Below, piece by piece: positions 1 through 15,222 of a stretch of 15,945 bases of DNA; position 1 is the first letter of the stretch; every line of letters begins with the position of its first letter. A model generated the notes under the pieces. That model saw only the letters and a program-made list of their open reading frames with translations, did no database searches and had not been told where the DNA came from. Source of the stretch: a virus (Duplodnaviria; Heunggongvirae; Uroviricota; Caudoviricetes); the IMG/VR virus record IMGVR_UViG_3300015207_000448; one strand, written 5' to 3'. The position numbers were made by a program, and so were the translations under genes.

Positions 1-465
1 TTTGCCCATATTATCAAGTTCGATAAACAGGTCATTTGAATGACTTGATACCATCAGCACATCAATATTCCCTTCCATAAAGTTGGTATGATTAAGAAGT
101 GGACATCCATGAGCCTCAATCCATTCCATTACGGCGATTGTACCACATCCAGTTCCGGACAGTTTGATATTCTTGCCAGCATAATCAGGATTAGATTGCT
201 TCTTAACCCCAATCATTATCTCGCCAGTAAATTCACACGAAAGACCGGCTATAAATCCACGAGCATTTATAATGTATTTATCCGTTTCTACCGACTTTTT
301 CATTATGTCAAGAACCTTAGTCAAGTCTTGCTCACCATATTTGAATGAACCTTTGAAACCATATATGGTATCAAATTTTGCACGTCCCAAGTCAGTCATT
401 ACTAACTCATTGAACTCACTACCCTCCAGCATTATAGCGGAGGGAATAATGTCTTTTAACTTCAT
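1..465 (-). CDS. Hypothetical protein, 3'-truncated by the window edge (MKLKDIIPSAIMLEGSEFNELV...)
   Basis: Manual translation gives an open frame from ATG at 465 to position 1 (155 codons). It is absent from the ORF track because no stop lies in the window. It is co-oriented with the neighbouring array. Confidence 0.8.
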   Translation of the reverse strand, partial: MKLKDIIPSAIMLEGSEFNELVMTDLGRAKFDTIYGFKGSFKYGEQDLTKVLDIMKKSVETDKYIINARGFIAGLSCEFTGEIMIGVKKQSNPDYAGKNIKLSGTGCGTIAVMEWIEAHGCPLLNHTNFMEGNIDVLMVSSHSNDLFIELDNMGK

Positions 466-469
466 AGCG

Positions 470-592
470 TTATTGTTTGTTGATTGCGGAGAAGGCGGTC
501 ACGATAACCGCAACTGTTTGTTTATGGTTCCCAGATGCTTCTTTACCCTCCAGACCTTGTGGCTTTCCCGGTACAATCTCGAAAGAATCCAT
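470..592 (-). CDS. Possible 40-aa small protein (MDSFEIVPGKPQGLEG...)
   Basis: ATG at 592 to TAA at 470-472 fills the gap between two co-oriented genes and ends 4 bp before the next ATG. Confidence 0.35.
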   Translation of the reverse strand: MDSFEIVPGKPQGLEGKEASGNHKQTVAVIVTAFSAINKQ

Positions 593-634
593 ATTGTTAG
601 CAGCATTTCCCAACAAGTATCATCTCCTGTGTAA

Positions 635-913
635 TTATGCAATTTCCTTAAAGAATATTGGGTATTTACCCAGTTCGGCACAGCAGTTGTAATTTGTAAA
701 GCTGAGGACATCGCTATCAAACGAATCGCCCCACCAAACTGCGTGTTCTTTATCAATCGGATATGGAGTGACCCACACCCCATCCACACTGCAAAGACAA
801 GGGAGCAGATAAACTGTCTCCCCAGCCTCATACAGCTTGCGAGCCTGAGTTTTGTTGATTTGCTTAATTCTCTTCTTCAGGCTGTTAGAGAATATCGGTT
901 CCGGATAACGCAT
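635..913 (-). CDS. Hypothetical phage protein, 92 aa
   Basis: ORF track; tightly packed in the leftward array; A-rich start context (AAAATG). Confidence 0.75.
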   Translation of the reverse strand: MRYPEPIFSNSLKKRIKQINKTQARKLYEAGETVYLLPCLCSVDGVWVTPYPIDKEHAVWWGDSFDSDVLSFTNYNCCAELGKYPIFFKEIA

Positions 914-924
914 TTTGTGAATTT

Positions 925-1776
925 TTAAGCAGCCTCTTTCAAATCGTATTCTGCGATAACTTCGGAGATAAGTTCCTCCGTTTCCATATAAAAGCCCCAG
1001 CAGGAGCCAATCTCTTCCCAGTCAAATGACTCAACCTTACGACCATCTGAATAAGTCTTAGTGTATGGTTCCTTCTTTTCCAGAACATAACCTTTGACAT
1101 CCCCCCAAGCCCACATTCCGATACATTTGACTTCTCCGTCAATCACTTTCATAGCTTGTTCTTGCCAAGTTTTGTAGTGGTTGGGAGAAAAACCACAACG
1201 CTCATCGAACATCTTTTTGGTAACATAGGAGAACCCTCTCATGTGATCGCCCTGGGAATATCCACTGGAATTCCATTCTTTTATCACGAAGTCCTTGGCA
1301 CATTCTTGGATGAGGGCCATTAGGTCATCCTCATCCAGTGGCTCCAACAACTCCATTCGGTAGTCATGTTTTTTGAGGTCGGAAGGGTCAATTTCCAAGT
1401 CATTTAGCCATTGCCCCTCATATAGACCATATCCTCGTTTGCCTTGGAGAACCCATTGACGCTGTGAACGGTCGTAGAAGAACCGCAAACCATCCACCTT
1501 GCCAGCTTTGAAATACTTGATGATGTCTTTCTGTTCCACCACTTCAGCAGCTATACGCTGGAGAATATCAGCTACTGAATATTCACGACAGTTGGAAACG
1601 TGTTCTTTCCAGTCGCAGCTCTGACTCAACCAATAGCGTCCGTGTTCCAGATGCTCAAAAATGTGAATTGCACCCATATCCCAATCTTGGACCGGGCAAC
1701 TTGGGTAATCATCGTGGTATATCTTGATGCGATAGTCACCAATCTCTTTGGTTTCTATCAATAAATTATCATTCAT
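925..1776 (-). CDS. Hypothetical phage/MGE protein, about 283 aa
   Basis: ORF 925..1863; start moved to Met30 (1776) to avoid overlap with the upstream gene ending at 1781. Patterns 'YRIKIYHDD..CP..DWD' and 'WAWGDVKGY...SCWGFY' resemble widespread uncharacterised phage proteins. Confidence 0.8.
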   Translation of the reverse strand: MNDNLLIETKEIGDYRIKIYHDDYPSCPVQDWDMGAIHIFEHLEHGRYWLSQSCDWKEHVSNCREYSVADILQRIAAEVVEQKDIIKYFKAGKVDGLRFFYDRSQRQWVLQGKRGYGLYEGQWLNDLEIDPSDLKKHDYRMELLEPLDEDDLMALIQECAKDFVIKEWNSSGYSQGDHMRGFSYVTKKMFDERCGFSPNHYKTWQEQAMKVIDGEVKCIGMWAWGDVKGYVLEKKEPYTKTYSDGRKVESFDWEEIGSCWGFYMETEELISEVIAEYDLKEAA

Positions 1777-1780
1777 AGTT

Positions 1781-2113
1781 TCAGGAATAAGCGAATAAAA
1801 CAAATCTCTTGACATCTTTGAGGTCAAGTGAAAAATCATCCCACTTGAAATCAAGTTCTTCATCAGTGTTCCAATCTCCGTTAATTACTTCGGTCATCAA
1901 TACCGAGGTATCTCCGATAATTCTGAAGAGTGGAGCAAACTGATAGTAGGTTGTGCGGTCAGTCTTGTCAAGATAGACTCTGATACAAGGCTGTTTCTCT
2001 CCTTTGGTGGGAGAATAAGTGCCTTTTCTTGCGGACACATCAGAGATATGAATCCCGTTCTTCTGTTTGATGTTGTCTGCATTGTTGAGGAGTAGAAAAT
2101 CGTAGAAGTCCAT
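1781..2113 (-). CDS. Hypothetical protein, 110 aa
   Basis: ORF track; fits operon packing. Confidence 0.75.
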   Translation of the reverse strand: MDFYDFLLLNNADNIKQKNGIHISDVSARKGTYSPTKGEKQPCIRVYLDKTDRTTYYQFAPLFRIIGDTSVLMTEVINGDWNTDEELDFKWDDFSLDLKDVKRFVLFAYS

Positions 2114-2125
2114 AAGACTCAGTAT

Positions 2126-2839
2126 TTAAGTGTGTCTTGACCATCCATAAGACGGGTCAATTTGGTAGGCAAAATTCTGTTGATAGCCTGTTTCGGGCCA
2201 GCCGTGAAATACTATTCCACCGGCAAGACCTTCTTGACGATTTCGGTATTCGCAGAAAGTGAACTCATTACGTGTCGGATAGTATGTGACTTCATAGAAA
2301 TGATCATCAGCCGTCTTACGATAGTTGCGAAACTCACGCAAAATCTGAATTAAGGTTCTTCCGTCACGGCTCTCTTCGGAACGGAGCATTTCTTTCAGTT
2401 TGCCGAGAGTGATATTCTTGAAGCGGACGGGCATCTTGAAATTTTTGGGAAGCGGACCATTCTTCGCTTTCCAATTCTCGACAACTGGCGTAACTACATC
2501 ACGGATAACTTCACGAGCTGCTTTTTCGGTGGTTTCCTTAACCTCATCCTTAGTGATTAAGAAAATCTTATCACCACCCAGCCAATCAAGATAGGCAGTG
2601 AATGGGTCGGAGCCTTGGGCGTGAGCATATCTGGCAGCCTCATCATTATTGAAGTGCTCATCGTAATCACCAAGTCTGAGCAAGTGAGTATGGCTTTCAC
2701 CCACAATCCACAGCATCGGGAATTTTGACTCATCGGCAGTCTCGATGTAAGGCTTATCGTATTTGGTGAAGTCGCTTTGAAAGCTCTTCATTAAGTCCGC
2801 AACGATATTGGTCATACGGTTGATTATTTTCTCATTCAT
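2126..2839 (-). CDS. Hypothetical protein with a probable DUF4120-like C-terminal domain
   Basis: C-terminal 'GGIVFHG...YGWSRHT' resembles the Bacteroidales DUF4120-type GGLxxHG...GWxxHT ending (recognised from memory). Confidence 0.65.
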   Translation of the reverse strand: MNEKIINRMTNIVADLMKSFQSDFTKYDKPYIETADESKFPMLWIVGESHTHLLRLGDYDEHFNNDEAARYAHAQGSDPFTAYLDWLGGDKIFLITKDEVKETTEKAAREVIRDVVTPVVENWKAKNGPLPKNFKMPVRFKNITLGKLKEMLRSEESRDGRTLIQILREFRNYRKTADDHFYEVTYYPTRNEFTFCEYRNRQEGLAGGIVFHGWPETGYQQNFAYQIDPSYGWSRHT

Positions 2840-3078
2840 AGGAACTTGATTGTTGGGGTGTTGATAACTTGGTGTTCTGCATTGAGAGCGAGCTGCATCT
2901 TTTTTGCACGACGGTCATGCCACTGATGATACACCGAGGTACGAATGTGAAATTTCTTCCACAGCACTTTGATACAAAAGCGGCGATAGTGGCGGCGTGA
3001 GAATTTATAGATGGTTGCGATAAACATAATCGCAAATATCAAAAGTGCTTTGATGAGATTGAAAAGAGGGGTTTTCAT
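2836..3078 (-). CDS. Small membrane-anchored basic protein, about 80 aa
   Basis: Start placed at Met32 (3078) of ORF 2836..3171. Hydrophobic helix LFNLIKALLIFAIMFIATIY followed by an Arg/Lys-rich tail. 4-bp overlap with the next gene. Confidence 0.6.
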   Translation of the reverse strand: MKTPLFNLIKALLIFAIMFIATIYKFSRRHYRRFCIKVLWKKFHIRTSVYHQWHDRRAKKMQLALNAEHQVINTPTIKFL

Positions 3079-3190
3079 ATTGATAAGCGTTTTATTCGTA
3101 TTAGTTGAAGTCGCTCTCAGAATTTTCTTAACGGATGTTAATAATTGAAGTCGGGCGATGTTTTTGAGCACACCGCCCTAATCAATTCAG

Positions 3191-3703
3191 TCAAGCGACC
3201 TTTGCTTTAAGTCCGAGAGCGGTTGCACATTCCTGGGCGTTAGCGGTCTTGATAACCCAGCCTTCGCCACCGGTCAAATGGCTATTGAACACACCTTTGA
3301 ACTGCTCTTTGAGGACTTTGCGGAGAGGCTTGGTATTGCCACGAAGCACCCAGCAACGGTCGTTGTACTTCTCGAACGTCAGACCGAGTTTCTTGATGGC
3401 AGCCGTGTCGGTTATGGCGATGAGAGTATCAGTTTCGCCGGCGGTCTTGGTTTCAGCTTTGGGGGCCTCAGCAGGTTTTGCCTTGGGCGTCTTGTCCTTT
3501 TTGGACTTGGTTTCGGTCTTAGTGGGTGTCGGAGTTGTAGTTTTGGCTTTCCCAGTAGTGGCACTGGCTGCGATTTCTTTATATCGTGCCTCATAAGCGG
3601 ACTGAACCTGCTTGATAAGACCATTGGCAGCAGATTTTAACTCATCAGTTGACTCGTACTGAGCGAATACGCTCTCTAATACGCTTGAAAAATTTATTCT
3701 CAT
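3191..3703 (-). CDS. Hypothetical protein, about 170 aa, with a K/T/P/A linker and a small conserved-looking C-terminal domain
   Basis: Start at Met18 (3703). C-terminal 'WVLRGNTKPLRKVLKEQFKGVFNSHLTGGEGWVI' follows the GxTK..K..LK..gg.FN..L...GW pattern common in phage/plasmid accessory proteins. Confidence 0.75.
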   Translation of the reverse strand: MRINFSSVLESVFAQYESTDELKSAANGLIKQVQSAYEARYKEIAASATTGKAKTTTPTPTKTETKSKKDKTPKAKPAEAPKAETKTAGETDTLIAITDTAAIKKLGLTFEKYNDRCWVLRGNTKPLRKVLKEQFKGVFNSHLTGGEGWVIKTANAQECATALGLKAKVA

Positions 3704-3731
3704 TGTTTTGGATTTTAGAAGTGAAAGAAAA

Positions 3732-3759
3732 AGCCGGCACCTCAGATGAAGCACCGGCT
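3732..3759 (-). terminator. Putative intrinsic terminator
   Basis: AGCCGG (3732-3737) / CCGGCT (3754-3759) stem, followed on the minus strand by TTTTCTTT, just downstream of the gene ending at 3781. Confidence 0.55.
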
Positions 3760-3780
3760 ATTGATTTTGATTTTGGCAGT

Positions 3781-3948
3781 TTAATCCTCTACCAGCGGAT
3801 CGCGCTCATTGAGAATATCCTCGATACCCTCAATTTCCTGACTGAGCAGTTCGATTTCAGCAGTGTCGTTTGACTGCATCATTCGTTCCGCAAGATTGTC
3901 GCGCTTTTCCTCCAATTCGGAGGTGGTCATTGCATCATAGTTTGCCAT
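3781..3948 (-). CDS. Small acidic coiled-coil protein, about 55 aa
   Basis: Start at Met24 (3948), 8 bp after the upstream stop; Glu/Asp-rich helical sequence. Confidence 0.65.
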   Translation of the reverse strand: MANYDAMTTSELEEKRDNLAERMMQSNDTAEIELLSQEIEGIEDILNERDPLVED

Positions 3949-3956
3949 AGTTGATA

Positions 3957-4262
3957 TTAGTTTAGAATGATACGTTTGCGGTTGGTTTTCTTGTTCACCA
4001 CCACAGCGAGGCGGCATTTTGCATCGTGCTTTTTACAGAGATTATATGACTCCACAACGTGTCGGGAAGCCTGTATCAACTCACCATTGTACAGGAAATA
4101 GAACTTGGTCGTTTTGTTCCCCTTGGAGTTGACACTTTCGTCCTCGACTATCTTCACGATTTGGGAGTTATTCACGGGGATTGTGTCGTTTTTGACTTCA
4201 TCGGCAGCATAAGCGGACACAGCAGCCACCGCGAGAATGATTGTGAGAATGAGTTTCTTCAT
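3957..4262 (-). CDS. Secreted/periplasmic hypothetical protein, 101 aa
   Basis: Classical signal peptide MKKLILTIILAVAAVSAYA|ADEV. Confidence 0.75.
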   Translation of the reverse strand: MKKLILTIILAVAAVSAYAADEVKNDTIPVNNSQIVKIVEDESVNSKGNKTTKFYFLYNGELIQASRHVVESYNLCKKHDAKCRLAVVVNKKTNRKRIILN

Positions 4263-4274
4263 CGCTTGGAATTT

Positions 4275-4694
4275 TTAGAGATTTGCACTTGCGTCTGCCA
4301 TCTCAAACTCAGGGTCGGGCATAAAGGTGTACACCTCCAGACCGTCAAAACTGTAATCCTCATTCAGCACCAGGGCGCCGACGAGTTTCTTGCCCTCTTC
4401 GATATAGTTGTGAACCATTTGGAAAGTTTCAAGGTCAACGAGGATTTCACACTCGAAGAGATTTGCGTCGGCATCGTTATAGAGCAGACAATAGGCATCG
4501 TCATACTCATACTCTTCCACCACATATTCAGTGGAAAAGAACATTCCGCTCACTGGGCGGTTTTCAGACGGATATTCCGCAAGAGATGCAGTGATTTCGT
4601 CCTGATACTTCACGAAAGAGGCAGCAACGGCACAGCCGACACCGAGGAAAGCAGCCACACAGCCGACTGCAAGGGTTTTGAGAAGTGATTTCAT
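4275..4694 (-). CDS. Exported or membrane-anchored acidic hypothetical protein, 139 aa
   Basis: N-terminal MKSLLKTLAVGCVAAFLGVGCAVAA signal-like segment; very acidic mature part. Confidence 0.75.
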   Translation of the reverse strand: MKSLLKTLAVGCVAAFLGVGCAVAASFVKYQDEITASLAEYPSENRPVSGMFFSTEYVVEEYEYDDAYCLLYNDADANLFECEILVDLETFQMVHNYIEEGKKLVGALVLNEDYSFDGLEVYTFMPDPEFEMADASANL

Positions 4695-4833
4695 TTTCTG
4701 TTGGATTTTGAAGGGTTAGCGTAATTGATGTACTTGCCACCAGAGCAGGAAGCGACTCTCACAGCCACACGAGGGCGACCGCAGATGTAATAAACTGTTC
4801 TAATCATTTTGTTGAATTTTTATTGGGTTGATA

Positions 4834-5322
4834 TTATTTTTCCATACGGACGGAGTTTGCCAAACGTGTTGACAGACCCATTTTGGGAGCGTTTTTGCGT
4901 GACGGTCTGCGACCTTTGGCAGCATTGAAGATTTCCCTCGCACTCATCTCAGAAAGTGGCTTGGAAGTATCACGACACTCATACGCACTCATCGCTTTTT
5001 CAGCGGTCATATTGACGGAAGTATGCAACACAGTCACTCTTTTCCCCTCAATCACATAGTGGGCACGGAACCGCAAGTTTGCTTGGAATTGAGCGGTCAC
5101 TTTACGGCGCACCTCAGAAGTACGACCGCCGACAGCCCAATTATTCCCGATACGACCCAGCACCACCTTGCGCCGGCGGATGCTGCATTTCCCGATATAT
5201 TCGATTTCTTCACGCTCAAAGTTTTCGGCATTGATATGTGCCTCACTCAAACGCAAAAGCCCAACGCCATAGGCATTGAGTTCAGATTTGGGCATAGAAA
5301 CCCCTTTGAATGATGTTACCAT
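4834..5322 (-). CDS. Basic hypothetical protein, 162 aa
   Basis: ORF track; AAAAATG start context; co-oriented with the array. Confidence 0.7.
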   Translation of the reverse strand: MVTSFKGVSMPKSELNAYGVGLLRLSEAHINAENFEREEIEYIGKCSIRRRKVVLGRIGNNWAVGGRTSEVRRKVTAQFQANLRFRAHYVIEGKRVTVLHTSVNMTAEKAMSAYECRDTSKPLSEMSAREIFNAAKGRRPSRKNAPKMGLSTRLANSVRMEK

Positions 5323-5398
5323 TTTTAAGTGTTTTTGTTTGGTGAGTGTGGGGGACTCGCACCCCCAATGTCGCTAAAGTTCACCCGATAGTTGAGGC

Positions 5399-6019
5399 TT
5401 AGAAATACACCTCAGACTTTTCAATGTTCACGATTTCGCGGACTTCTTTGCCGTCTTTTTCAGCGATGCGAATGATGCAAAGGTCTTCCATCTCTTCCCA
5501 CGCGAGGTCGGACTCCACGCTTTTGTCGTTGTACTTTTTGTAATCACGACCTTGCTTCAGACCGCGCAGAATGATTGCGACAGTCCACTTGTCGTCAGCG
5601 ATTTCGGACAGCATGAAGCGTGAAACGCACTTGCCGTCAATCTTTGCAGCCTCTTCGGGTGTGAACACACGATAGACCGTGCCGTCCTCATCTTTGTACT
5701 TTGCAGGGATATTCTTGAACACACACATTTTCCCCTTTTCGCCCTCAGTCTGCATTGCAGTGTTCCACCCTTTGCGGATAGTGCCGGGGGTGTAGCCCTT
5801 TTTCTGCACTTTGCCGTTTTGCTTGGTCACAGTGAAACGCTCCACGCCCATTGCGCTCATCCACGCCTCCACAGTGAGTCCGTCGCACGAAGCGAGTTTT
5901 TCACTGTACAGCGTCTCGAATTGACGCAGTACCTGCGTGAGTTGCGAGGTCTTGCCGAGGATTTCACGGGTGCCGGCGTTGATTTGCTTTGCGTTGAGAG
6001 TAGTTGCAGAAGTTGCCAT
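5399..6019 (-). CDS. Hypothetical protein, 206 aa, first gene of the leftward array
   Basis: ORF track; no recognisable motif. Confidence 0.8.
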   Translation of the reverse strand: MATSATTLNAKQINAGTREILGKTSQLTQVLRQFETLYSEKLASCDGLTVEAWMSAMGVERFTVTKQNGKVQKKGYTPGTIRKGWNTAMQTEGEKGKMCVFKNIPAKYKDEDGTVYRVFTPEEAAKIDGKCVSRFMLSEIADDKWTVAIILRGLKQGRDYKKYNDKSVESDLAWEEMEDLCIIRIAEKDGKEVREIVNIEKSEVYF

Positions 6020-6944
6020 GATGATTTAGTAACCCCACACGAGAGCGGTTACAACTGCTTTAATTATTAGACATAGTGGGTACGGGGACGCATTGCAATC
6101 CCCTGCGCCGCTTTTACGGACTTACCCTATAAAGTGTTAATTGGATTGTAAAATCTACCAGAACGGGCGTAACTTGTGCTCCTACGCCAATCCGAACACG
6201 CCCACTAAGGGGTACGGTCAGTGCGCTTGCATGGTATGCCTTTACCGCATTCGTGCGCAACCGTTTTTGCACATTTCGGACTTCTTTGCGTTCTATGCTA
6301 TCCGATTGAGTCGTTTCACCCTACAAGTCGGACAAAGGTTTCCCCCGAATGGTCACATTACGCCACTCTTCCCCCATGCGCAGGGGCTTCCGCGCTTTAT
6401 ACGCCCGCACTATTGCGGTTTTTACTCACACACGGATATTTTTGTAACTTAATCATTGAAACGGTTTGCTACTTCGATACTTCACACGTTTTTTGCTATA
6501 TTGCAGTTCATGGAATTGCATAGCATAGACGAAAATTTGCTAAATTTTGCTCACTCATGGAGTCAAGCGGTTTCACTTTTCGCACCTATTGCCAAAGGTT
6601 ACTAAGCATCAATATGTCAAAGTTCTCTTGCAAGTTTTTGAGAGGTTCGGGAGCTAATCCGTTTCTCAAATCTTACACCACAATATTGCAGTGGTCTTTG
6701 GACGGTTACAACACCTTTGGCAAAATTTTTTTTGAAATAGTCCATCTTTTATATCTATTAAGGTGTAAGGCTGTTTGCAAGGTTGTAAGTGATTGATTTA
6801 CAGCAAACTAAAAATCTTCATTTTTCTTGAAAATTTTTTGTGAAAATGGTTATTTTTGTGTTTGGAGAAGGTCTAAAAAAGGTTTAGGGTGTTTTGGAGT
6901 GTTAAACAAATGTTAAAAAATGGAGTTACACATATATATAAAAA

Positions 6945-6972
6945 GGTTTCACTTTCTAAAAATAGTGAAACC
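6945..6972. repeat. Inverted repeat GGTTTCACT-N10-AGTGAAACC
   Basis: Read directly: arms at 6945-6953 and 6964-6972. Confidence 0.85.
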
Positions 6973-7081
6973 AAAATTTCAAAATTGAGCCAAAAGATTG
7001 AAAAACAAGCAATTATCGGCAATCAATGTAGATTAAACACTTTTTAACACTTTAAGTCGGTTTTTCAGTCTAAAAATAGAT

Positions 7082-7106
7082 GTTTCACTTATTGCAAAAG
7101 TGAAAC
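7082..7106. repeat. Inverted repeat GTTTCACTT-N7-AAGTGAAAC
   Basis: Read directly: arms at 7082-7090 and 7098-7106. Confidence 0.85.
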
Positions 7107-7815
7107 CAAAATAAGCCAAAAATGGAGCTAAACATCTGAAAATAAATAAAAAACCGGGGTGGGTGCCTCCCTTGCTCTTCAAGGCAGATGTAAATTTTTC
7201 CCAATTTTCAAATCTCGTTTTTGGTAGTTGTTTTACTGGTAGGATGAGTGCCATCCCAGCTCCACAAAACCCCTTTGAATCGACCCAATTTTCTTCCCAG
7301 AAATCGGCTTCAAACCATCATTTTTAAGCCAAAATCGGCTAAACCCCTGAGCCATCTTAGCTTACCTAATTTACAGCACCTCAGTTCTTTCTCTTAATCC
7401 TGAGAGGTCATCCCAGCCAATTTTCAAAACCGTCTAAAATGCCCCAAATTTCGCCTTTCTCAACCCCAAATGAACAACTACCCATCTTGGCCCACAAAAT
7501 TGATTGTACGGCCTCCTATGGGGCAAATTTGGGCATATTTCATCTCAACGTCCGTTCAGGATATTTGGCAACCATAAAAATTCTTGTTTTTGGCACACCA
7601 GAAACCTCTCAGAACACTTGCCCAAATTTTCCGGGGGCCATTTTTCAAGTCGGTTTTTGGACTGGGGGCGATCGGCGGGGCGAGGCCGGCGGCGGGCGCG
7701 GTCTTATTTGGGAAGGTTTTAAGAATTTCAAAAAAAGAAAAACCTTAAACCTCCTTCCACTCCCTAAAACTTCCCCAACACTTCTTCCAAACATCACAAA
7801 ACAATTTTTGTAAGA

Positions 7816-7919
7816 ATACTGGGATAGGAACTAAGCTCTATTCAAAAAACTCTAAACAGTCTTTTGAAGGTTTGCTGGGAATGAGGGGGAACAGACTTTG
7901 ATAAAGATACTGGGATAGG
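7816..7919 (+). repeat. 13-bp direct repeat ATACTGGGATAGG, two copies
   Basis: Exact copies at 7816-7828 and 7907-7919. Confidence 0.85.
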
Positions 7920-8032
7920 GAGCTACGATTACTAAGAAGTTCTCTGCTTTGGGCGCGCTCGCGTGTGCGCGAGCCACTCGACCGAATTTCCTTTTCGACT
8001 TTAGGAGAAAAGGAATGAGGGAGAGTGGACCC

Positions 8033-8131
8033 TTTCTTTCTATTTTTTCTTTTTATTTATTTTTCTTTTTTTCTTTTTCTGTCGGTTTTTCTTTTTTTCT
8101 GTTTTTTCTTTTTCTTGTTGTTCTTTCTTTC
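8033..8131 (+). repeat. T-rich low-complexity polypyrimidine tract
   Basis: About 100 nt made almost entirely of T runs broken mostly by single C/A/G. Confidence 0.9.
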
Positions 8132-8255
8132 GTGGCCTCCGACCGCCCCAGCCACAAAAACAATGCGCCGAGCTTCACAGCCCAGCGCACTTGTAAACCA
8201 AAATTTGTATGAGACAAAAACTCGTGCTCATTTCATAATAGTCGGTGGAGAGAGG

Positions 8256-8271
8256 AACACTGCTTTCATCA
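8256..8271 (-). repeat. 16-bp motif TGATGAAAGCAGTGTT, copy 1
   Basis: Plus strand AACACTGCTTTCATCA, identical to 8994-9009 and 9610-9625. Confidence 0.9.
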
Positions 8272-8436
8272 GGATCTGCGCCGATTGTTTGCCCTGCGCT
8301 CTTTTCTGGATATTGGCTTTCGGCTCTCTTCTCCGGAAGTCAGGATTGCGTACTGTTTGGGTACATCAGGTATCGGGGCCTTTGGGTGGAATGGCGAAAC
8401 AGCCATCATCGCACTAATCAGAATTTCGGGTATCAT
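8269..8436 (-). CDS. Small basic protein, 55 aa (MIPEILISAMMAVSPFHPKAP...RKERRANNRRRS)
   Basis: Manual translation, below the ORF-track cutoff. It overlaps the end of 8414..8671, and its TGA stop is the first three bases of the 16-bp motif. Confidence 0.5.
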   Translation of the reverse strand: MIPEILISAMMAVSPFHPKAPIPDVPKQYAILTSGEESRKPISRKERRANNRRRS

Positions 8437-8671
8437 AACTTTCTTCAGTTTTTTCTACTGGCAGCCAAGAGAACCGCCATTGGTGTTTGTTGGATGATTT
8501 GCTCACTATGCTCTGGAAGTCGAAGCAGACAGCATTGAACTGTCGTACTCTGAAAAACTTGTGATTGCTGCCGTCATCAGTGTAACAGTGAATGTAAATG
8601 TCCGAGCCTTGGGCCGGATATTTGGCAAACGTGTTCCAATGCAGCGACAGCAGATGTTCTTTGAAGTCCAT
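8414..8671 (-). CDS. Hypothetical protein, 85 aa
   Basis: ORF track; 1 bp from the upstream gene. Confidence 0.65.
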   Translation of the reverse strand: MDFKEHLLSLHWNTFAKYPAQGSDIYIHCYTDDGSNHKFFRVRQFNAVCFDFQSIVSKSSNKHQWRFSWLPVEKTEESYDTRNSD

Positions 8672-8672
8672 C

Positions 8673-8975
8673 TCAGATTATGAATTTGTTGTCAGGTACA
8701 ACCAAGCCCTTTCCAGGCTTCCAGCCTTTTTCAACTTTCAGCTTCTGGAATTTCTCGATAAGGTCAACCATAACCTGATCAGAAACTCTACCAAGATGGA
8801 AATACACACATCCGTCAATGTTACGGCAATCTTTGATGGTCTTTTCAGGAATTTGCATCATCATCTTCCCATTCTGCATTACCGGCTTGAAATCATAGTC
8901 GGCAAATCTGGAATCCAGTGTTACCAAGGTCAGGTTCCCGAATTTCTGGAACTCAAACGGTATCGGTCTGCTCAT
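8673..8975 (-). CDS. Hypothetical protein, 100 aa
   Basis: ORF track; operon packing. Confidence 0.75.
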   Translation of the reverse strand: MSRPIPFEFQKFGNLTLVTLDSRFADYDFKPVMQNGKMMMQIPEKTIKDCRNIDGCVYFHLGRVSDQVMVDLIEKFQKLKVEKGWKPGKGLVVPDNKFII

Positions 8976-8993
8976 TGTGTTTCAGTTTTTGAA

Positions 8994-9009
8994 AACACTG
9001 CTTTCATCA
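8994..9009 (-). repeat. 16-bp motif, copy 2
   Basis: Exact AACACTGCTTTCATCA between the wHTH stop (9012) and the ATG at 8975. Confidence 0.9.
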
Positions 9010-9011
9010 AT

Positions 9012-9593
9012 TTAATCATATTCCTCTTCCTCTGCCGGATCGTGGTCTGGGTCAAGAACGTGGGTATCGTATGCACCTTTCACATCTTCCTTGGTGAGAT
9101 TGAGGATATTGATTTTGCGTGAGGCTTTCCTGATCCGAGTGTAAATACCCAGATCTTCGCCTTCAACGAGGTCATTCAAATGTTGAATAGCTGGATAATT
9201 GAGCTTGCGGAGTCGGCCCCCACCCTTTTTCCCATTTGGGGTCTCCAGTAATAGCCCAATTTTTCTGAGAGAATAAAGACAGTTGCTAAGAGTAGGAGCA
9301 GAAATTTTCATTCTAACTGCCATCTCTTTTAACGACAATGCACAATCACCATTCTCATTGGTTTCTTCGATGATGGTGGAAAGCAACATCAATTCATTCT
9401 TGCTGAGAAAATATATCAGGACTTTGGGGAGTGGGATAACCATTCCGTCAAAAACCTCATCGGCCTCTACGGATGCAATTACCTGATACTTGACTTTAGG
9501 CAAGACTATTCTGCCTCTAAGCTGTTTTTGATCGAGCTTGATGATAATCGGCTCCGGGGGTGGGAGTTTAGCTCTATTTGGTACTCGCTTCAT
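9012..9593 (-). CDS. Winged helix-turn-helix DNA-binding protein
   Basis: 'SLKEMAVRMKISAPTLSNCLYSLRKIGLL' fits a wHTH, followed by a wing-like 'ETPNGKKGGGRLRKL'; acidic C-terminal tail. Confidence 0.75.
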   Translation of the reverse strand: MKRVPNRAKLPPPEPIIIKLDQKQLRGRIVLPKVKYQVIASVEADEVFDGMVIPLPKVLIYFLSKNELMLLSTIIEETNENGDCALSLKEMAVRMKISAPTLSNCLYSLRKIGLLLETPNGKKGGGRLRKLNYPAIQHLNDLVEGEDLGIYTRIRKASRKINILNLTKEDVKGAYDTHVLDPDHDPAEEEEYD

Positions 9594-9609
9594 GTTATGA
9601 ATTGTTCAT

Positions 9610-9625
9610 AACACTGCTTTCATCA
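9610..9625 (-). repeat. 16-bp motif, copy 3
   Basis: Exact copy 16 bp upstream of the wHTH ATG. Confidence 0.9.
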
Positions 9626-9660
9626 CGTCAGGATGTGGCAACATCCTCATTTGCAAGTTG

Positions 9661-9691
9661 CAAAATTATTAAAAATTTAAGTTCGGACAAA
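9661..9691 (-). promoter_or_regulatory. Bacteroidetes sigma-A promoter for the wHTH operon
   Basis: Minus strand TTTG (9688-9691), 19-bp spacer, TAATTTTG (9661-9668); matches the TTTG-N19-21-TAnnTTTG consensus. Confidence 0.7.
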
Positions 9692-9731
9692 ATAATGGGC
9701 GAATAATTCACCCAGTTTTAATTTTTAATAG

Positions 9732-9739
9732 TAACTTTG
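9732..9739 (+). promoter_or_regulatory. -7 promoter box TAACTTTG for the rightward gene
   Basis: Matches TAnnTTTG, 27 bp upstream of ATG 9767; no clear -33 TTTG. Confidence 0.55.
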
Positions 9740-9766
9740 CAGGTTAAAAAGACAAGACCGTTCCAG

Positions 9767-10630
9767 ATGAAAACTCTGAATCAAATATACCGATACACTT
9801 CTGATTGCCAGTTCCCAGACGAGGACTGGCAGAAAGTTCTCGCATATTGTCGCAAACGGTTTAAGGGAGGGAACATTCGTGTCTCTCAGATTCCCAAATC
9901 TACTTCAACATATCAGGAATTTCTTGATTGGATAGAGTTTGGATTTGGAGCTGGTGATTTTGTTAGCTATGGCAATACAATGGGTGTGGTCGGAAATAGC
10001 ACGCCGGCAGGAGTGATTTTAGCTGCTTATTGTGACTATGATGGAAATCTCATCGTAAATGATATGGAGGTTCTGGAGCCAGAGAGATTAAAACCTCTTG
10101 ATGAGGCCCGGATATTACAGTTGAAACGCCTCTTATTTGAGAAAGGGGTGGATTTTCATGTTCGATTTGGTAAGTTTGAGAAACTATACACCCCTAAAAA
10201 ATATTTTTATGGCACTATTGAAAACCCCAATAGTGATGAGCCAAATGTGGGTATGTTCTTAGAATCAGACAATTCCAAATATCATTTTCTGGCGTATCTG
10301 GAGGGGGATGAACTTAAAATGGATTATTGGGTGGATTCTAACTATACACCCTTAAAACCAGCATTGGAGGCTGACATAAAACGATTACACGCAGCTACAT
10401 CTAAGCAAGGTTGGTTCTATAATGAGCGGTGTCATCAATTTGTAAAAGCACCCAAAAAGGGAAAGGATAATGTGTACTGGTATCTGAATGAGAATTTTGA
10501 ACTTGTGATGGATCGGGATAATGGTTCAAAGAAGCATTTGGATAGATTTAAGGCCGGTAACTACATCTTAGACTATACTGAAGGGTTGTTCTTTATGAAG
10601 GAAGTCAAAAAGATGAGGGGGAAAGCGTAA
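9767..10630 (+). CDS. Hypothetical phage protein, about 287 aa, with an internal duplication
   Basis: Start moved to ATG 9767 because the track's TTG start lies inside the -7 box. Two 'LKP..EA.I..L......G..F' units; C-terminal 'YWYL...D...RFKAGNY' pattern typical of phage hypotheticals. Confidence 0.8.
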   Translation: MKTLNQIYRYTSDCQFPDEDWQKVLAYCRKRFKGGNIRVSQIPKSTSTYQEFLDWIEFGFGAGDFVSYGNTMGVVGNSTPAGVILAAYCDYDGNLIVNDMEVLEPERLKPLDEARILQLKRLLFEKGVDFHVRFGKFEKLYTPKKYFYGTIENPNSDEPNVGMFLESDNSKYHFLAYLEGDELKMDYWVDSNYTPLKPALEADIKRLHAATSKQGWFYNERCHQFVKAPKKGKDNVYWYLNENFELVMDRDNGSKKHLDRFKAGNYILDYTEGLFFMKEVKKMRGKA

Positions 10631-10645
10631 TGCCATCCCCCTCAT
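10613..10645. terminator. Bidirectional intrinsic terminator between convergent genes
   Basis: Perfect 10-bp stem ATGAGGGGGA / TCCCCCTCAT with an A run on the left and a T run on the right. Confidence 0.8.
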
Positions 10646-10646
10646 T

Positions 10647-11483
10647 TTATCGTTGGTCTATCGGTTTGAAAGTCTTTTTCAAGGCTACATCGTACCAATA
10701 ATCTTCTGCCTTATCAGCTGGAATTTTATCAGCAAATGATTGTTGGCCGTTAGCTTTATTCCAAGCAAGAACTTTATCATACGAAAACGCATACATTCCC
10801 ACCGGCTGTTGTCTGAGTGTGGATTTCTCATTAAGACAGCTGAGAATATCCTTCTCAGTGACGTAAAGATAATCCTTGTATTCATTTTTGAAATGGATAA
10901 AGTTGTCGTATTGGTGCTTGTTGTAGAAAAGCGCCCAACAATATACCACAATCTCCATATCGGTCAGTTGATCCCAACCATTGTTCTCATCATCTTCGGC
11001 AAGCATAATCACTTGTCTGAGATAGGTGCGATTGACTTTGGCCTGCTCTTTTGTTACCTCATAAGGTTTAAGCATAGGATCTACACGACCGCCCAGATTA
11101 AGAACCCCCTCTTTGGTCAAGGTATATTCTCCATTTTCCAATGGGAAGCTGAAGATGAGATTGAGACGCTTGTGATCATAAGCGTTTACTTTTCGGATTG
11201 AGTAATTCTTATCCCATATACGGACTTGCTTACGATTGGAAGCTGCATCATTGAAATCATCAGCAATATCCAAAACAAGACGGTCAAGGATTTTTTTCTC
11301 AATCTTGCAACCCCATATATCCTCTGGAGTAAACTCTTCGTCATCCTCCGGGGCCACAATGTCGTAGAGGCAGCTGAGAGCATAGGCTGCATGAAGCATG
11401 AATGGCTGGTCACTGATTTCCCAAGGCTCATTCATCAATGTGTCTATATCTGACACATCGTATGGCATATACTTGTTACTCAT
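10647..11483 (-). CDS. Hypothetical protein, 278 aa
   Basis: ORF track; long, acidic; no recognisable motif. Confidence 0.8.
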   Translation of the reverse strand: MSNKYMPYDVSDIDTLMNEPWEISDQPFMLHAAYALSCLYDIVAPEDDEEFTPEDIWGCKIEKKILDRLVLDIADDFNDAASNRKQVRIWDKNYSIRKVNAYDHKRLNLIFSFPLENGEYTLTKEGVLNLGGRVDPMLKPYEVTKEQAKVNRTYLRQVIMLAEDDENNGWDQLTDMEIVVYCWALFYNKHQYDNFIHFKNEYKDYLYVTEKDILSCLNEKSTLRQQPVGMYAFSYDKVLAWNKANGQQSFADKIPADKAEDYWYDVALKKTFKPIDQR

Positions 11484-11766
11484 CGTCAGGGAGGATTTTT
11501 TCTATTGCGTCGATGAGATCTGAAGCATAAGGTGAGGGATTGTTCATTGTGTTGAACACAATGAGCTTGATGATGCGATACAGTGTAGAGCCGATAGGAT
11601 TGTTCGGCTGGTGCATACAAGAGAATATCGCCTGAGCAATATTATCAGTTTCTCCGTGAGCAACGGCACCACATTGGCCATCTTTGTGAGCGATAATGAG
11701 GAAGTCTGAATCATCCCCCATAATCTGTTGTGCTTTTTTAAGCAACTCTTCAGTTTTTTGTTTCAT
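11476..11766 (-). CDS. Hypothetical protein, 96 aa
   Basis: ORF track; overlaps both neighbours. Confidence 0.75.
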   Translation of the reverse strand: MKQKTEELLKKAQQIMGDDSDFLIIAHKDGQCGAVAHGETDNIAQAIFSCMHQPNNPIGSTLYRIIKLIVFNTMNNPSPYASDLIDAIEKILPDDE

Positions 11767-12373
11767 TGGAATTTGGTTTACTGATTATACTGCTTTCATC
11801 ACTTTTTATATCCTGGAGATTGATAAAGAAACCACAATGTTCATCACCTACATTCCATTTTGGTGGAACTGTATTGAATGGGCCTCTTTCATCATTCTCC
11901 AATGCCCGGTTATATCTGAAACAATGATAGCGATCCAGACACGCACGAGCCTGACATTTCTTATTACTTTTCTTCAGTTGACGATATGCTTTCAAGGTTA
12001 TCTCTACTGCTGAGGTGGGAAGTTGTGAGGAAAATCGGTCCGGTATGGTGCCTATAACCCATATATCATTTGACTGAATAAGGGAACCGTCGGTACGCAT
12101 AAAATATCTCATCTTTCCCTTACCTCCGAGAATAAGGGTCTTATCCTTTTTGTCGGCAACCGGATGCAGACGCAGACATTTATGATTGACCACCTCCATA
12201 TATTCCGGGGGGTAAGCAATCAAATCTTCCCAGTACGCACACTCATAGCAGACACCATCTCTGACCATAATATGAGCGATACGATTTTGGGTATTGTAGT
12301 TCTGCATCCAGATTTTCTTTCCACAAAGACCACAATATTTGATTTTACTCAATATTCTGCATCTATTTTCCAT
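11750..12373 (-). CDS. Cys-rich, probable zinc-binding hypothetical protein, 207 aa
   Basis: CGLC...CYEC pair plus CxxxxCxxxxxC...HC; starts 2 bp after the recombinase stop. Confidence 0.75.
   Translation of the reverse strand: MENRCRILSKIKYCGLCGKKIWMQNYNTQNRIAHIMVRDGVCYECAYWEDLIAYPPEYMEVVNHKCLRLHPVADKKDKTLILGGKGKMRYFMRTDGSLIQSNDIWVIGTIPDRFSSQLPTSAVEITLKAYRQLKKSNKKCQARACLDRYHCFRYNRALENDERGPFNTVPPKWNVGDEHCGFFINLQDIKSDESSIISKPNSNETKN
11789..11801 (-). repeat. 13-bp core of the 16-bp motif, copy 4
   Basis: ACTGCTTTCATCA, inside the 3' end of 11750..12373 and 22 bp upstream of ATG 11766. Confidence 0.8.
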
Positions 12374-12375
12374 TC

Positions 12376-12969
12376 TTATATCTGTATAGAGTCAAAGATG
12401 TTTGATATTTCATCATTACGAATACCAAGATAAGTAATCGTAGTATCTAAGCTGGTATGCTTGAAAATACGATTGAGGTACATAAGAGTCTTTTCATCTT
12501 GACCTCCTTTATCATAGACATACCTTCCAAATGTTTTCCGAAATGTGTGAGTGCTGAAATTGTCAATATCCAGATCATATTTTACCGCCCATTTCTTTAA
12601 GGTGCGATTGATATACTGAATTGACACAGCCTTTCCCTCTTCTCCTTTTTGCCCTACAAGGATAATGTCTCTTTTGGGAGGTTTACCCATCAGTTTATAA
12701 AGAGAAGTGAAATGGTCAGAAGCATTTTGTCCGATTGGGATAACGTGAGTCTTATTGGTTTTCTTTGCCGTGATGACAATCTTTCTCTGGTCAAGCACGT
12801 CAGTCCACCTTAGTTTACATACATCAGAAAAGCGCAGCCCGGTACAAAAAGACAGGATGCAATAACAGGCCCACCAATATTTCTTTTCATCAATAAGGGT
12901 CTGAACAAGTTTTTGATAATCGGCATACGGCAGATAGTCGGCCGTAGTCACGCTTCCTTTTTTACTCAT
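12376..12969 (-). CDS. Tyrosine recombinase (phage integrase family), catalytic domain only, 197 aa
   Basis: Catalytic residues R46 (GLRFSD), K70, H141-x-x-R144 (HTFRKT), H171 and Y180 are all present; no N-terminal arm- or core-binding domain. Confidence 0.92.
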   Translation of the reverse strand: MSKKGSVTTADYLPYADYQKLVQTLIDEKKYWWACYCILSFCTGLRFSDVCKLRWTDVLDQRKIVITAKKTNKTHVIPIGQNASDHFTSLYKLMGKPPKRDIILVGQKGEEGKAVSIQYINRTLKKWAVKYDLDIDNFSTHTFRKTFGRYVYDKGGQDEKTLMYLNRIFKHTSLDTTITYLGIRNDEISNIFDSIQI

Positions 12970-12991
12970 ACAATTTTTGGTTTTGGTATCG

Positions 12992-13023
12992 CAAAATTAA
13001 TTCCAAAAAGTGAAACCACCAAA
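12992..13023 (-). promoter_or_regulatory. Bacteroidetes sigma-A promoter of the recombinase operon
   Basis: TTTG (13020-13023), 20-bp spacer, TAATTTTG (12992-12999); an AGTGAAACC site (13009-13017) sits in the spacer. Confidence 0.7.
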
Positions 13024-13156
13024 TATTTTTGTAGTTTCACTTTCTAAAAAATGTTAAACTTGACTTAAAACACTGGTAACGTGTTATCTAAGCATTTAAG
13101 GAAGTTTCACTTTTTACAATAGATACACCTTAATTATATAGGAAAGGCCATTAAAA

Positions 13157-13189
13157 AAGGAGCGTGTGCTTCTCTGCTTCACGCTCCTT
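13157..13189 (-). terminator. Intrinsic terminator after the dUTPase gene
   Basis: Perfect 10-bp stem AAGGAGCGTG / CACGCTCCTT followed by a T run on the minus strand. Confidence 0.8.
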
Positions 13190-13210
13190 AATTGTGCTGT
13201 ATGAATCGGA

Positions 13211-13672: not shown

Positions 13673-13695
13673 TTTCTATATTTAATGTTATAAGA

Positions 13696-14497: not shown

Positions 14498-14502
14498 AGC
14501 GT

Positions 14503-14922: not shown

Positions 14923-14955
14923 ATAAATGGGATTTGAATAATGAACTGCGGATAA

Positions 14956-15222
14956 TCATTTGATCTCATCGAGATTTATGTAGAAAGCATTGTCAGGAAC
15001 TTTCTCCGGACCAATGGCCCTGGGGAATTTGTATAGTTCCCAACTATAACTGGTATATCGCTTGAAATAATAAGTATCATAACTGACACCAATCTTCAGG
15101 CAGATATTACAGCTTTCAGTCGGTGGGTTATTCTTCAGGTTTTTCCAATTTGTCATTTGACTGTAGTATTTGTGAGTTGTTTCGATGTACTCCTTTTTAT
15201 AATAGTATTGGGTGTATAGCAA
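14956..15222 (-). CDS. Hypothetical protein; start uncertain (15222 or ATG 15156)
   Basis: ORF track; 'MTNWKNLKNNPP..S' resembles phage W.....P N-termini. Confidence 0.55.
   Translation of the reverse strand: MLYTQYYYKKEYIETTHKYYSQMTNWKNLKNNPPTESCNICLKIGVSYDTYYFKRYTSYSWELYKFPRAIGPEKVPDNAFYINLDEIK

Follow-up and report, generated by a model that had tools for sequence, protein, structure and literature searches.

Conjugative plasmids carry anti-defence islands in their leading region, and the first-step-transfer region of phages T5 and BF23 is reportedly a further leading region that is poor in restriction sites. EcoRII sites in T3 and T7 DNA, which are widely spaced, are refractory to cutting, and the enzymes that act on two sites (Type IIE/IIF) include HpaII and Sau3AI. 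In T7-like phages (Autographiviridae) the leading region likewise avoids restriction sites (PMC12455610). Genome-wide, both phages and their hosts avoid the sites of orthodox Type II systems (Rusinov et al. 2018, PMC6286503; 2015, PMC4687349); among the phages surveyed, those with a host that has a cognate Type IIM enzyme were without exception poor in GATC, and the degree of avoidance in temperate phages resembled that of their hosts.

The stretch of DNA analysed here (the window; 15,945 nucleotides) is part of a ~107-kb temperate phage, the hosts of which are gut Bacteroidales, and scans were performed over the 75-kb record that holds the window and contains 170 GATC sites. Across the whole phage, GATC occurs at about half of its expectation, with an observed/expected ratio (O/E) of 0.47, and the likely host is depleted to a similar degree (0.54). 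This general poverty is not specific to the phage, being common to it and its likely host. CTAG is near-absent from the whole phage, as it is from the host, and CATG is the most avoided site of the phage relative to the host. Positions 1-7669 of the window (the block) are consequently not an island in a normal genome; they exhibit an approximately 5-fold deeper GATC depletion on top of the genome-wide one. The earlier note on this DNA had held that a depletion seen throughout the genome would speak against its reading, and such a depletion is indeed present, although in a milder form than that of the block. The features of the window are collected in Table 1.

Table 1. Features of the window and of the site-poor block within it.
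Feature	Positions	Strand	Details
GATC-poor block	1-7669		3 sites, O/E 0.10; runs on ~9 kb left of the window
GATC-free stretch	3802-7669		longest in the 75-kb record
GGCC-free stretch coinciding with the GATC gap	3468-7488		GGCC at 1315, 2196 and 3464, next at 7489
Promoter-proximal end of long leftward, presumably early gene array	1-6019	-	~12 small genes, nearly all without known family
Conserved acidic, presumably early protein (marker gene)	925-1863	-	homologue searches, predicted fold
Conserved, presumably early protein	2126-2839	-	homologue of BS-TP1 gp62; DUF4120-like C-terminus (weak, sub-threshold)
Two small genes (3957-4262 and 4275-4694)	3957-4694	-	N-termini signal-peptide- or lipoprotein-like
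First two array genes	4834-6019	-	GC-rich (~50%), kept in nearest relatives only
GC-rich leader 5' of first array gene	6020-6440	-	no ORF conserved in relatives
AT-rich control region	6441-7438		operator-like inverted repeats
GC-rich element at sharp right edge	7631-7700		GATC 7670; GGCC 7636 and 7684; CCGG 7631 and 7686
Separate small leftward operon, outside the desert	8162-9691	-	genes 9012-9593, 8673-8975 and 8414-8671
Small tyrosine recombinase, catalytic domain only	12376-12969	-	family match
Start of Mu-type portal gene	15256-15945	+	opens rightward structural arm

Judged by architecture, the genes of the block can reasonably be regarded as early, as they are promoter-proximal in a long operon beside the control region. 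The marker protein, whose true start is probably located ~27 codons inside its ORF, has more than 200 relatives; its gene is found in no fewer than four distinct types of phage backbone (the window's own type, G009, G011/G010 and the ~150-kb L038 cluster), and its confident predicted fold has no match among solved structures. The two small genes with signal-peptide- or lipoprotein-like N-termini look like moron-type genes. Six CATG sites are clustered at 5612-6556, from the 5' end of the first array gene, through the leader, to just past it, and the operator-like inverted repeats GGTTTCAC...GTGAAACC of the control region are found at 6945-6972 and 7082-7107. Two GGCC sites (7489 and 7510) lie immediately left of the GC-rich edge element. 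In the operon outside the desert, a match to a Bacteroides-type promoter (9661-9691) and a terminator-like hairpin (8162-8191) are present. The small tyrosine recombinase is not the integrase of the prophage; the latter is located ~29 kb left of the window.

Only three GATC sites are found in the block (at 1245, 2302 and 3798), with none in 3802-7669, as against 24 in 7670-15945, and on recounting the numbers given in the earlier note (3, 0 and 24) proved exact. A maximal-order Markov (trinucleotide) expectation of 28.6 sites yields an O/E of 0.10, the value lying between 0.10 and 0.14 depending on the control. Scaling to the O/E found outside the block (0.50) lowers the expectation to 14.3 sites (P 4e-4), whilst a synonymous-codon shuffle of the block genes predicts 21.8, compared with the three seen. 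Neither trinucleotide nor codon composition, the two checks that had been suggested, therefore explains the GATC depletion. Among all 7669-bp stretches of the record, the block has the lowest GATC count (P 0.003 versus random placement of the 170 sites), and no other GATC gap in the genome is as long as its 3.9-kb one (P 0.02).

A coinciding desert of GGCC had not been noticed in the earlier reading. Six GGCC sites are located in 1-7669 versus 23 in the remainder of the window, where the rest of the genome leads to an expectation of 15.6 for the block (P 0.005), and the minimum of the GGCC scan falls at the same place as that of GATC (P 0.002). When the 136 strand-merged 4-mers are ranked by local depletion, GATC, GGCC and CCGG occupy the top three positions and palindromes account for six of the first twelve (P 6e-4). 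GC-containing 4-bp palindromes are shifted as a class at 19-38 kb of the record only (P 6e-4), and non-palindromic 4-mers display no shift in the block. AGCT, CCGG and CATG are depleted in the block region to a lesser degree than GATC and GGCC, and CATG in the coding DNA of the block (codon-shuffle O/E 0.30) is not clearly lower than elsewhere (0.29-0.54). The signal of the block looks like restriction-site avoidance rather than composition.

Chance acting with local composition, with nothing beyond the host-like genome-wide poverty in GATC, is a disfavoured and highly unlikely source of this pattern. The single-word scans reach P values of merely 0.002-0.003 in a region that was chosen post hoc by a reader, and unbiased meta-analyses in distant relatives (see below) are not significant for GATC. 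Nevertheless, two independent words coincide, the trinucleotide and codon-shuffle controls explain neither of them, and significance is attained both by the class-level palindrome test and, for both words, by an independent test based on private sites, also described below.

The earlier note considered the depletion to be sharp and confined to the left part of the window. It is not confined, since a GATC O/E of ~0.2 persists for a further ~9 kb leftwards (record 20-29 kb) before rising; the edge is sharp on the right, in the control region, but on the left the depletion fades over ~15 kb and extends beyond the window. Along the early arm, the codon-shuffle O/E of GATC changes with distance from the control region from 0.14 (0-6.6 kb) through 0.29 (6.6-15 kb) to 0.54 (15-34 kb). 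Over the same intervals, the values are 0.26, 0.62 and 1.08 for GGCC and 0.58, 1.06 and 1.22 for AGCT. In the structural arm right of the portal start, the O/E of GATC is 0.6-0.8. Within the array, variability is greatest at 1.3-9.6 kb of the record, where all genes are unique; this part is not depleted beyond background, and the novelty of the genes is thus no explanation of the desert.

Sites private to a lineage were compared with their neutral expectation, using one relative that is 85-93% identical, for which the median over all words is 0.9-1.0. In the block, 9 private GATC sites were found against 36.1 expected (0.25), compared with 28 against 39.3 next door (0.71; P 0.003); for GGCC the corresponding numbers are 10 against 19.8 (0.51) and 25 against 19.0 (1.32; P 0.006). 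Purifying selection on new GATC and GGCC sites is demonstrably 2-3 times stronger in the block than in adjacent DNA, and this lower persistence of new sites argues against a passively inherited foreign module. The alternative offered by the earlier note, that of a module acquired from a donor whose word usage differs, is accordingly weakened, general word usage appearing normal and selection being ongoing.

A mosaic history could nonetheless take another form, in which the block, or successive pieces of it, recombined in from lineages under stronger GATC/GGCC restriction, the rest of the phage matching its present host. This scenario is possible, although we consider it unlikely. The family is visibly mosaic, as the marker gene resides in at least four backbones, the palindrome O/E of relatives varies from place to place along their genomes, its troughs lying at differing positions, and the levels of the block (GATC 0.14, GGCC 0.26) equal those of G011 genome-wide (0.14 and 0.25). 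However, non-palindromic 4-mers are unshifted, and passive inheritance followed by neutral decay would not lead one to expect the stronger exclusion of new sites since the split. The block and control region together constitute the most deviant stretch of the record, with a dinucleotide distance of 71-79 versus 21-44 for most stretches, a high value that stems largely from the non-coding region. Protein identity to G003 is lower in the block (~50%) than to the right (~66-75%), yet the step at the edge itself is only from ~50% to ~66%, and a recombination junction was not found there; a single alignment to a close relative, at 89.5% identity, crosses the right edge of the desert with no break in identity. 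In addition, those array genes that vary most, and are most plainly accessory, lie in an undepleted part, and no closer donor was found.

The longest GATC gap is situated at the same place in three other whole genomes (G003, G004 and G005) and in 10 of the 17 lineage representatives. Apart from G004 and G005, which are mutually related, the four genomes compared have hardly any nucleotide similarity, or none, at the gap. These co-located gaps are partly due to a lower number of GAT and ATC trinucleotides there. In the same three genomes, which are more distant, the codon-shuffle O/E of GATC is uniformly 0.22-0.49, without a promoter-proximal gradient. A meta-analysis of 18 lineages anchored on the ORF-free region placed GATC at 0.87x its flank expectation (not significant), with no depletion of GGCC; in a fixed-zone meta-analysis, GATC stood at 0.84x expectation (not significant) and only GGCC was clearly low (0.53x). 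Distant relatives thus show the pattern of the block weakly. In G011, which carries the same marker on another backbone, the 46-kb early arm has 7 GGCC sites where 85 are expected, and the opposite arm has 44 where 84 are expected. In G010, the arm bearing the marker has a higher GATC level than its counterpart. Relatives also have troughs elsewhere, e.g. BS-TP1 at 84-93 kb.

It had been proposed that the block enters the cell first, a claim for which no support was obtained. Packaging normally starts at terS/terL, and the gene order puts 34-43 kb between the block and these genes along the direction of packaging, and 64-72 kb in the opposite direction, i.e. the block is mid-map in the prophage; the predicted terS-side ends have no desert. 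That it nevertheless represents first-entering DNA, the longest exposed as in T7 and T5, with a virion end at about 7.5-8.4 kb, within the large non-coding region, appears improbable. A sharp edge with one-way decay over ~15 kb is the profile expected of progressive entry from an end near 7.6 kb, and the unusually large distance between terminase genes and portal in this family makes the usual rule for packaging sites less safe. There is also a precedent in the Autographiviridae, where the location of sites in the leading region decides restriction sensitivity (PMC12455610). One related contig ends, with the sequencing adapter attached, ~125 nt upstream of the first array gene, a single case that may be an artefact or a transcript end, but other contigs ending nearby break in 50-bp tandem repeats and are assembly breaks, not termini; the published account of the relative BS-TP1 is without termini data. 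Furthermore, the family has contractile-tail and Mu-type head genes, and phages of this type are not known to enter stepwise or by transcription.

The small genes of the block had also been put forward as anti-restriction candidates. Comparison of the block proteins with Pfam, PHROG and NCBIfam returned no match to an anti-restriction family, and Pfam gives no Lar match for a neighbouring gene of a relative that is labelled 'Lar-like'. A search for the phage GATC methyltransferase that had been suggested was similarly negative: D12 (Dam-type), N6/N4 and C5 methylase families have no matches in the window's record, and a D12-class methylase is absent from four near-complete relatives and from the record's 99% identical twin contig. 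Among 201 Bacteroidales genomes, the DpnII family is represented in 13 (10 of these with strong near-full-length matches) and the HaeIII family in seven; neither nuclease family is present in the single host-proxy genome (G001). The likely host does encode a D12-class adenine methylase, and the site-free core spans the operator-like repeats and the leader, as would fit a model in which host methylation at GATC/GGCC interferes, within the control region, with the working of a repressor, a polymerase or an origin. This model is very improbable, given that the depletion covers more than 10 kb of coding DNA, affects at least two unrelated words and follows a smooth gradient, whereas regulatory sites would account for a few hundred bases only.

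The explanation that we favour, tentatively and as something short of probable, is that selection against restriction sites is position-dependent, its target being the DNA expressed first. Selection would keep Type II palindromes scarce in the control region and in those ~8-15 kb of the leftward early operon that are nearest to the promoter. During its first minutes in the cell, first-expressed DNA would have to stay uncut and open to transcription, and the block presumably encodes functions by which host defences are weakened or damaged phage DNA is rescued, such that a cut in the block would be costlier than a cut elsewhere. The three GATC sites of the block are spaced by 1.06 and 1.50 kb and followed by 3.9 kb without any, and spacings above 1 kb may leave the remaining sites poor substrates for two-site enzymes. 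Counting against this explanation, no accepted mechanism is known by which cuts would harm one part of a rapidly injected genome more than another.

In more general terms, it is conceivable, if doubtful, that in large temperate phages with a map-internal early region the outcome of Type II restriction depends on site location, the first-expressed operon and control region being kept near site-free with a gradient that decays from the early promoter. The principle of the 'leading region', as it applies to T7, T5 and conjugative plasmids, would then extend to phages without polar entry, and cuts outside the early operon would be partly survivable, e.g. owing to anti-restriction or repair functions that are expressed early, or because co-infecting kin are helped. 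Why a cut outside this operon should harm less than one inside it would become a testable question. Most scores of avoidance are given for genomes as wholes; should position count in temperate gut phages as in T7-like ones, predictions of host range and restriction sensitivity based on site counts would be wrong without a weighting by location. Deserts would also serve as a pointer, obtainable from sequence alone, to the first-expressed, defence-countering genes of uncultured phages, in this case to about a dozen genes annotated without function and one widespread family with an unmatched fold. If module history is responsible instead, the desert marks recombination between phages whose hosts differ in their restriction repertoires.

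The locus resembles several known systems in part. In common with the genome-wide avoidance surveyed by Rusinov et al., GATC is low throughout the phage (0.47) and its host (0.54); that work scored genomes as wholes, whereas here a 5-fold deepening within one genome is accompanied by a second word, a gradient and differential ongoing selection. Like the leading regions of plasmids, the DNA that would be expressed first is variable, contains many small unknown genes and may be dedicated to countering defences, although plasmid leading regions are set by transfer polarity from oriT and no anti-defence gene emerged from the family searches with the block proteins. The likeness to the refractory EcoRII sites of T3 and T7 is that thinning to spacings above 1 kb can protect despite leftover sites; the cases differ in that the single host-proxy genome yielded no nuclease of the DpnII or HaeIII family. 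In T7-like phages and T5, the site-poor region abuts the first-entering physical end, the DNA enters slowly or in steps, and Type I systems are among the enzymes that were studied. In contrast, the block belongs to a temperate phage of Bacteroidales, ~107 kb in size, that has genes for a contractile tail and a Mu-type head; it is map-internal by gene order, starts at a divergent control region and is poor in 4-bp Type II words. What it shares with the leading regions of these phages is that an apparently early, variable and mostly unannotated part of the gene complement is kept site-free whilst sites persist elsewhere, such that the location of sites, and not their number alone, would count.

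Direct search gives the same GATC counts as the earlier note, with sites at 1245, 2302 and 3798 within positions 1-7669 (the block) and 24 more from 7670 onwards. The window maps to 29150-45094 in a 75.5-kb IMG/VR provirus (the record) and matches it except for 16 substitutions close to the right end. Under a maximal-order Markov model (trinucleotide, within the record), 28.6 sites are expected in the block, an observed/expected ratio (O/E) of 0.10. The block has the minimum GATC count among all 7669-bp windows of the record (P 0.003, with 170 sites placed randomly), and a 3.9-kb GATC gap is the record's longest (P 0.02). Shuffling synonymous codons within the block genes predicts 21.8 sites where 3 are seen. 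The depletion is therefore real and not compositional, as trinucleotide, amino-acid and codon controls all fail to account for it. Its description as sharply bounded holds for the right side, near 7.6 kb, but not for the left: sliding GATC O/E is ~0.2 over record 20-36 kb, then 0.47, and then 0.75 in the structural genes. Similarly, it is local in that the block lies far below the rest, although the whole record is also low (O/E 0.47). Relaxed constraint in fast-evolving genes, leading to fuller site loss, was rejected because synonymous changes can remove every GATC and because depletion is lacking where the gene array varies most.

A second word coincides with this desert. GGCC is absent between 3464 and 7489, numbers 6 in the block versus 23 in the remainder of the window, and has an O/E of 0.23-0.28 at record 24-36 kb versus ~0.8-1.2 elsewhere (scan P 0.002); it is depleted genome-wide neither in the phage nor in the host. 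Among 136 strand-merged 4-mers, GATC, GGCC and CCGG are the three most depleted locally, GC-containing palindromes as a class shift at record 19-38 kb only, and non-palindromic words show no shift. The local depletion is palindrome-specific which, together with the coincidence of GGCC and the failure of the composition controls, supports restriction-site avoidance. Codon-shuffle ratios along the leftward array of early genes reveal a gradient common to GATC, GGCC and AGCT. The best explanation, put forward tentatively and at somewhat less than an even chance, is position-dependent selection on first-expressed DNA.

Codon-shuffle O/E of three palindromes, with distance counted from the array start
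Word	Early, 0-6.6 kb	6.6-15 kb	15-34 kb	Middle genes	Structural genes
GATC	0.14	0.29	0.54	0.64	0.69
GGCC	0.26	0.62	1.08	1.67	1.01
AGCT	0.58	1.06	1.22	1.22	1.00

A relative's contig, 85-93% identical to the phage, spans the edge on both sides, with one 89.5% alignment crossing it. For all 4-mers, expected lineage-private occurrences were calculated from the other sequence's context and an empirical substitution matrix; the all-word median O/E comes to 0.90 for the block and 0.99 for the DNA on its right. Since the private-site ratios of the palindromes are lower in the block than right of the edge, selection against these sites during recent divergence is 2-3 times stronger in the block.

Lineage-private palindromic sites, observed/expected (ratio), on the two sides of the edge
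Word	Block	Right of edge	P (block vs right)
GATC	9/36.1 (0.25)	28/39.3 (0.71)	0.003
GGCC	10/19.8 (0.51)	25/19.0 (1.32)	0.006
AGCT	27/29.0 (0.93)	57/36.2 (1.57)	0.014
CCGG	15/19.3 (0.78)	28/21.1 (1.33)	0.06
CATG	8/30.4 (0.26)	17/35.5 (0.48)	0.11

This stronger recent selection weakens the alternative raised in the earlier note, a mosaic history in which a site-poor module was inherited from a foreign donor, as a passively inherited segment would not give the private-site asymmetry. Nor does the trough follow gene novelty: all genes of the distal array (record 1.3-9.6 kb) are unique, yet its depletion is no deeper than background. A donor module nevertheless keeps its place in the ranking, as an unlikely but serious alternative.

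The ~107-kb genome order was pieced together from the record and a 99% identical 89.7-kb contig. It begins with an integrase, a 34-kb leftward small-gene array, a 1.4-2.4-kb largely non-coding control region and a short middle module that includes a small tyrosine recombinase, and continues with a Mu-type portal and structural genes, a diversity-generating retroelement, replication genes, terS and terL. The block represents the promoter-proximal end of the array together with the left portion of the control region. Among described phages, the nearest relative is the temperate, 111.7-kb Bacteroides phage BS-TP1, whose publication contains nothing on termini, methylation or restriction (PMC12694917).

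Features of the early region and its surroundings (window coordinates)
Feature	Position	Remarks
GC-rich leader	6020-6440	In the control region; ~420 nt, ~55% GC; upstream of first array gene; several inverted repeats
Operator-like inverted repeats GGTTTCAC...GTGAAACC	6945-6972, 7082-7107	Operator-like inverted repeats GGTTTCAC...GTGAAACC
GC-rich element	7631-7700	In the control region; palindromes return
Bacteroides promoter pattern TTTG-N-TAnnTTTG	9661-9691 (-), 12992-13023 (-)	Window's only two matches; each just upstream of a leftward gene

The leader is possibly a 5' untranslated region with secondary structure; Rfam gave no RNA family in the whole window, leader included, at E <= 0.1. An operator-like GGTTTCAC motif, placed before the small recombinase, overlaps the second promoter match. 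In a close relative an Abi_2 (abortive-infection) family gene (L156:13548-14441) lies between the small recombinase and the portal, where the window has none, a difference that marks this interval as, most probably, a variable defence cargo slot.

The suggestion that the block genes are anti-restriction factors is not shown, as scans of their ORFs against PHROG, Pfam and NCBIfam yielded unknown-function or sub-threshold matches only. Nearly all of these genes belong to no known family, and two of them encode products opening with signal-peptide-like sequences. Five related genomes gave no match to Pfam Lar, leaving the 'Lar-like restriction alleviation' label of BS-TP1 gp61 unconfirmed. For the first array gene, the sole match in a language-model atlas search (0.76) is at chance level; a literature search on DUF4120 found no paper, and nothing in the phage collection came close to identity with the window as a whole. 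At 2126-3171 (-), the window has a 237-aa gene and, separate from it, a 111-aa ORF upstream; in G012, a contig with 99% identity, the gene continues as a single 302-aa ORF. The protein encoded at 925-1863 (-), used here as a marker, is a widespread acidic early protein, has conserved GYSQGD and SCWG motifs, and has >200 phage relatives on at least four phage backbones. Its fold is predicted confidently (pLDDT 86). The model found nothing in Foldseek/PDB at E <= 0.001, a best Z of 6.0 (noise level) in exhaustive VIA-align and its own family only in the ESM Atlas; the predicted fold has no convincing solved-structure match, and newness is not claimed.

The block had also been proposed to be the first DNA to enter the cell. 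On the circular map, however, terS is 34-43 kb away from it when followed the way terS-to-terL transcription runs and 64-72 kb away the opposite way, DNA adjoining terS has no desert, and in one related group the contig ends clustered ahead of the array are tandem-repeat breaks. Entry order is therefore judged unsupported and is improbable as the cause. In a single related IMG/VR contig (L066:1-52), terminal Illumina adapter is joined to phage DNA ~125 nt upstream of the first early-array gene; the 99.9% identical L065 reads through the junction point, and the end may represent a genuine DNA terminus, the 5' end of a transcript or an artefact. The ~50-bp tandem-repeat arrays are found in one cluster of ~150-kb phages, 8-9 kb ahead of the marker (starts of L042, L055, L079, L086 and L090; L058:970-1270), and may be iterons. 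Five assemblies break within them, and the contig ends there were rejected as physical termini. The idea that the edge joins two prophages, or prophage and host, was likewise rejected, as the record starts with the integrase ~29 kb leftward and synteny with the related phage G003 runs through the edge.

One block gene has a 96% identical copy in the Muribaculaceae gut bacterium Heminiphilus faecis AM35, where GATC O/E is 0.54 and CTAG 0.02 over the 120 kb counted. Given these similar levels in phage and bacterium, the genome-wide share of the GATC signal mirrors the host. CTAG occurs 0 times in the window, twice in the 75-kb record, once in 112-kb BS-TP1 and three times in the 120 kb of the likely host (L095-L100, O/E ~0.02), and is far less avoided in the related phages G010 (O/E 0.68), G006 (0.15) and G003 (10 sites). 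BfaI, from Bacteroides, cuts CTAG. CATG is the truly phage-specific avoided word, with an O/E of 0.31 in the phage versus 0.93 in the host. Six CATG fall within 1 kb (window 5612-6556), over the 5' end of the first gene and the GC-rich leader, the word being scarce elsewhere; local enrichment is also found in the corresponding zone of G003 and its fellow relative G004. The host proxy encodes a D12-class adenine methylase adjoining an HNH nuclease (L100:5273-7139), possibly a candidate Type II pair. NlaIII, which recognizes CATG, is an HNH enzyme.

The search for a phage GATC methyltransferase elsewhere found no Dam-type, N6/N4 or C5 methylase in the window's record, and no Dam-type (D12) methylase in four near-complete relatives or the 99% identical twin. 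Among 201 Bacteroidales genomes, DpnII-family (GATC) nucleases are present in 13, with 10 strong, near-full-length matches, and HaeIII-family (GGCC) nucleases in 7; the host proxy has neither. A sporadic, strain-level distribution of enzymes such as this would drive site avoidance.

In the whole genomes of G003, G004 and G005 (the last two mutually related), the longest GATC gap matches the block's gap in position, and the matching spot falls inside the longest gap of the 20-kb locus in 10 of 17 lineage representatives (P ~0.001). In the gap zone ~1.5 kb of the twin and G003 is alignable at ~74% identity and, G004 with G005 aside, no other pair is alignable. On a different backbone carrying the marker (G011, L130-L134), GGCC numbers 7 against 85 expected in the 46-kb early arm (1-46 kb), with 44 for 84 expected in the other (48-85 kb; P 5e-8). 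In G009 (L124-L129, 170-14757), the 14.6 kb that follow the marker and continue its array hold 4 GATC against 54 expected, with GGCC not depleted. Coding-sequence GATC O/E is 0.22-0.49 throughout G003-G005, with no gradient, G010 shows a reversed arm bias for GATC, and relatives have troughs at other positions. Two zone-based meta-analyses gave GATC at 0.84-0.87 times flank expectation, which is not significant, and GGCC at 0.53 times in one with no depletion in the other. The co-located gaps accordingly reflect mostly local trinucleotide content and are weaker evidence for a conserved positional trait. Given this mixed evidence, the strong block contrast is established for this lineage and suggestive only for the family.

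Position-dependent selection would keep the DNA that is expressed first poor in restriction sites. The closest known phenomenon is the avoidance of such sites in the leading region of T7-like and T5-like phages (PMC12455610), of which the desert would be a variant in a temperate phage, situated here in an internal early region.
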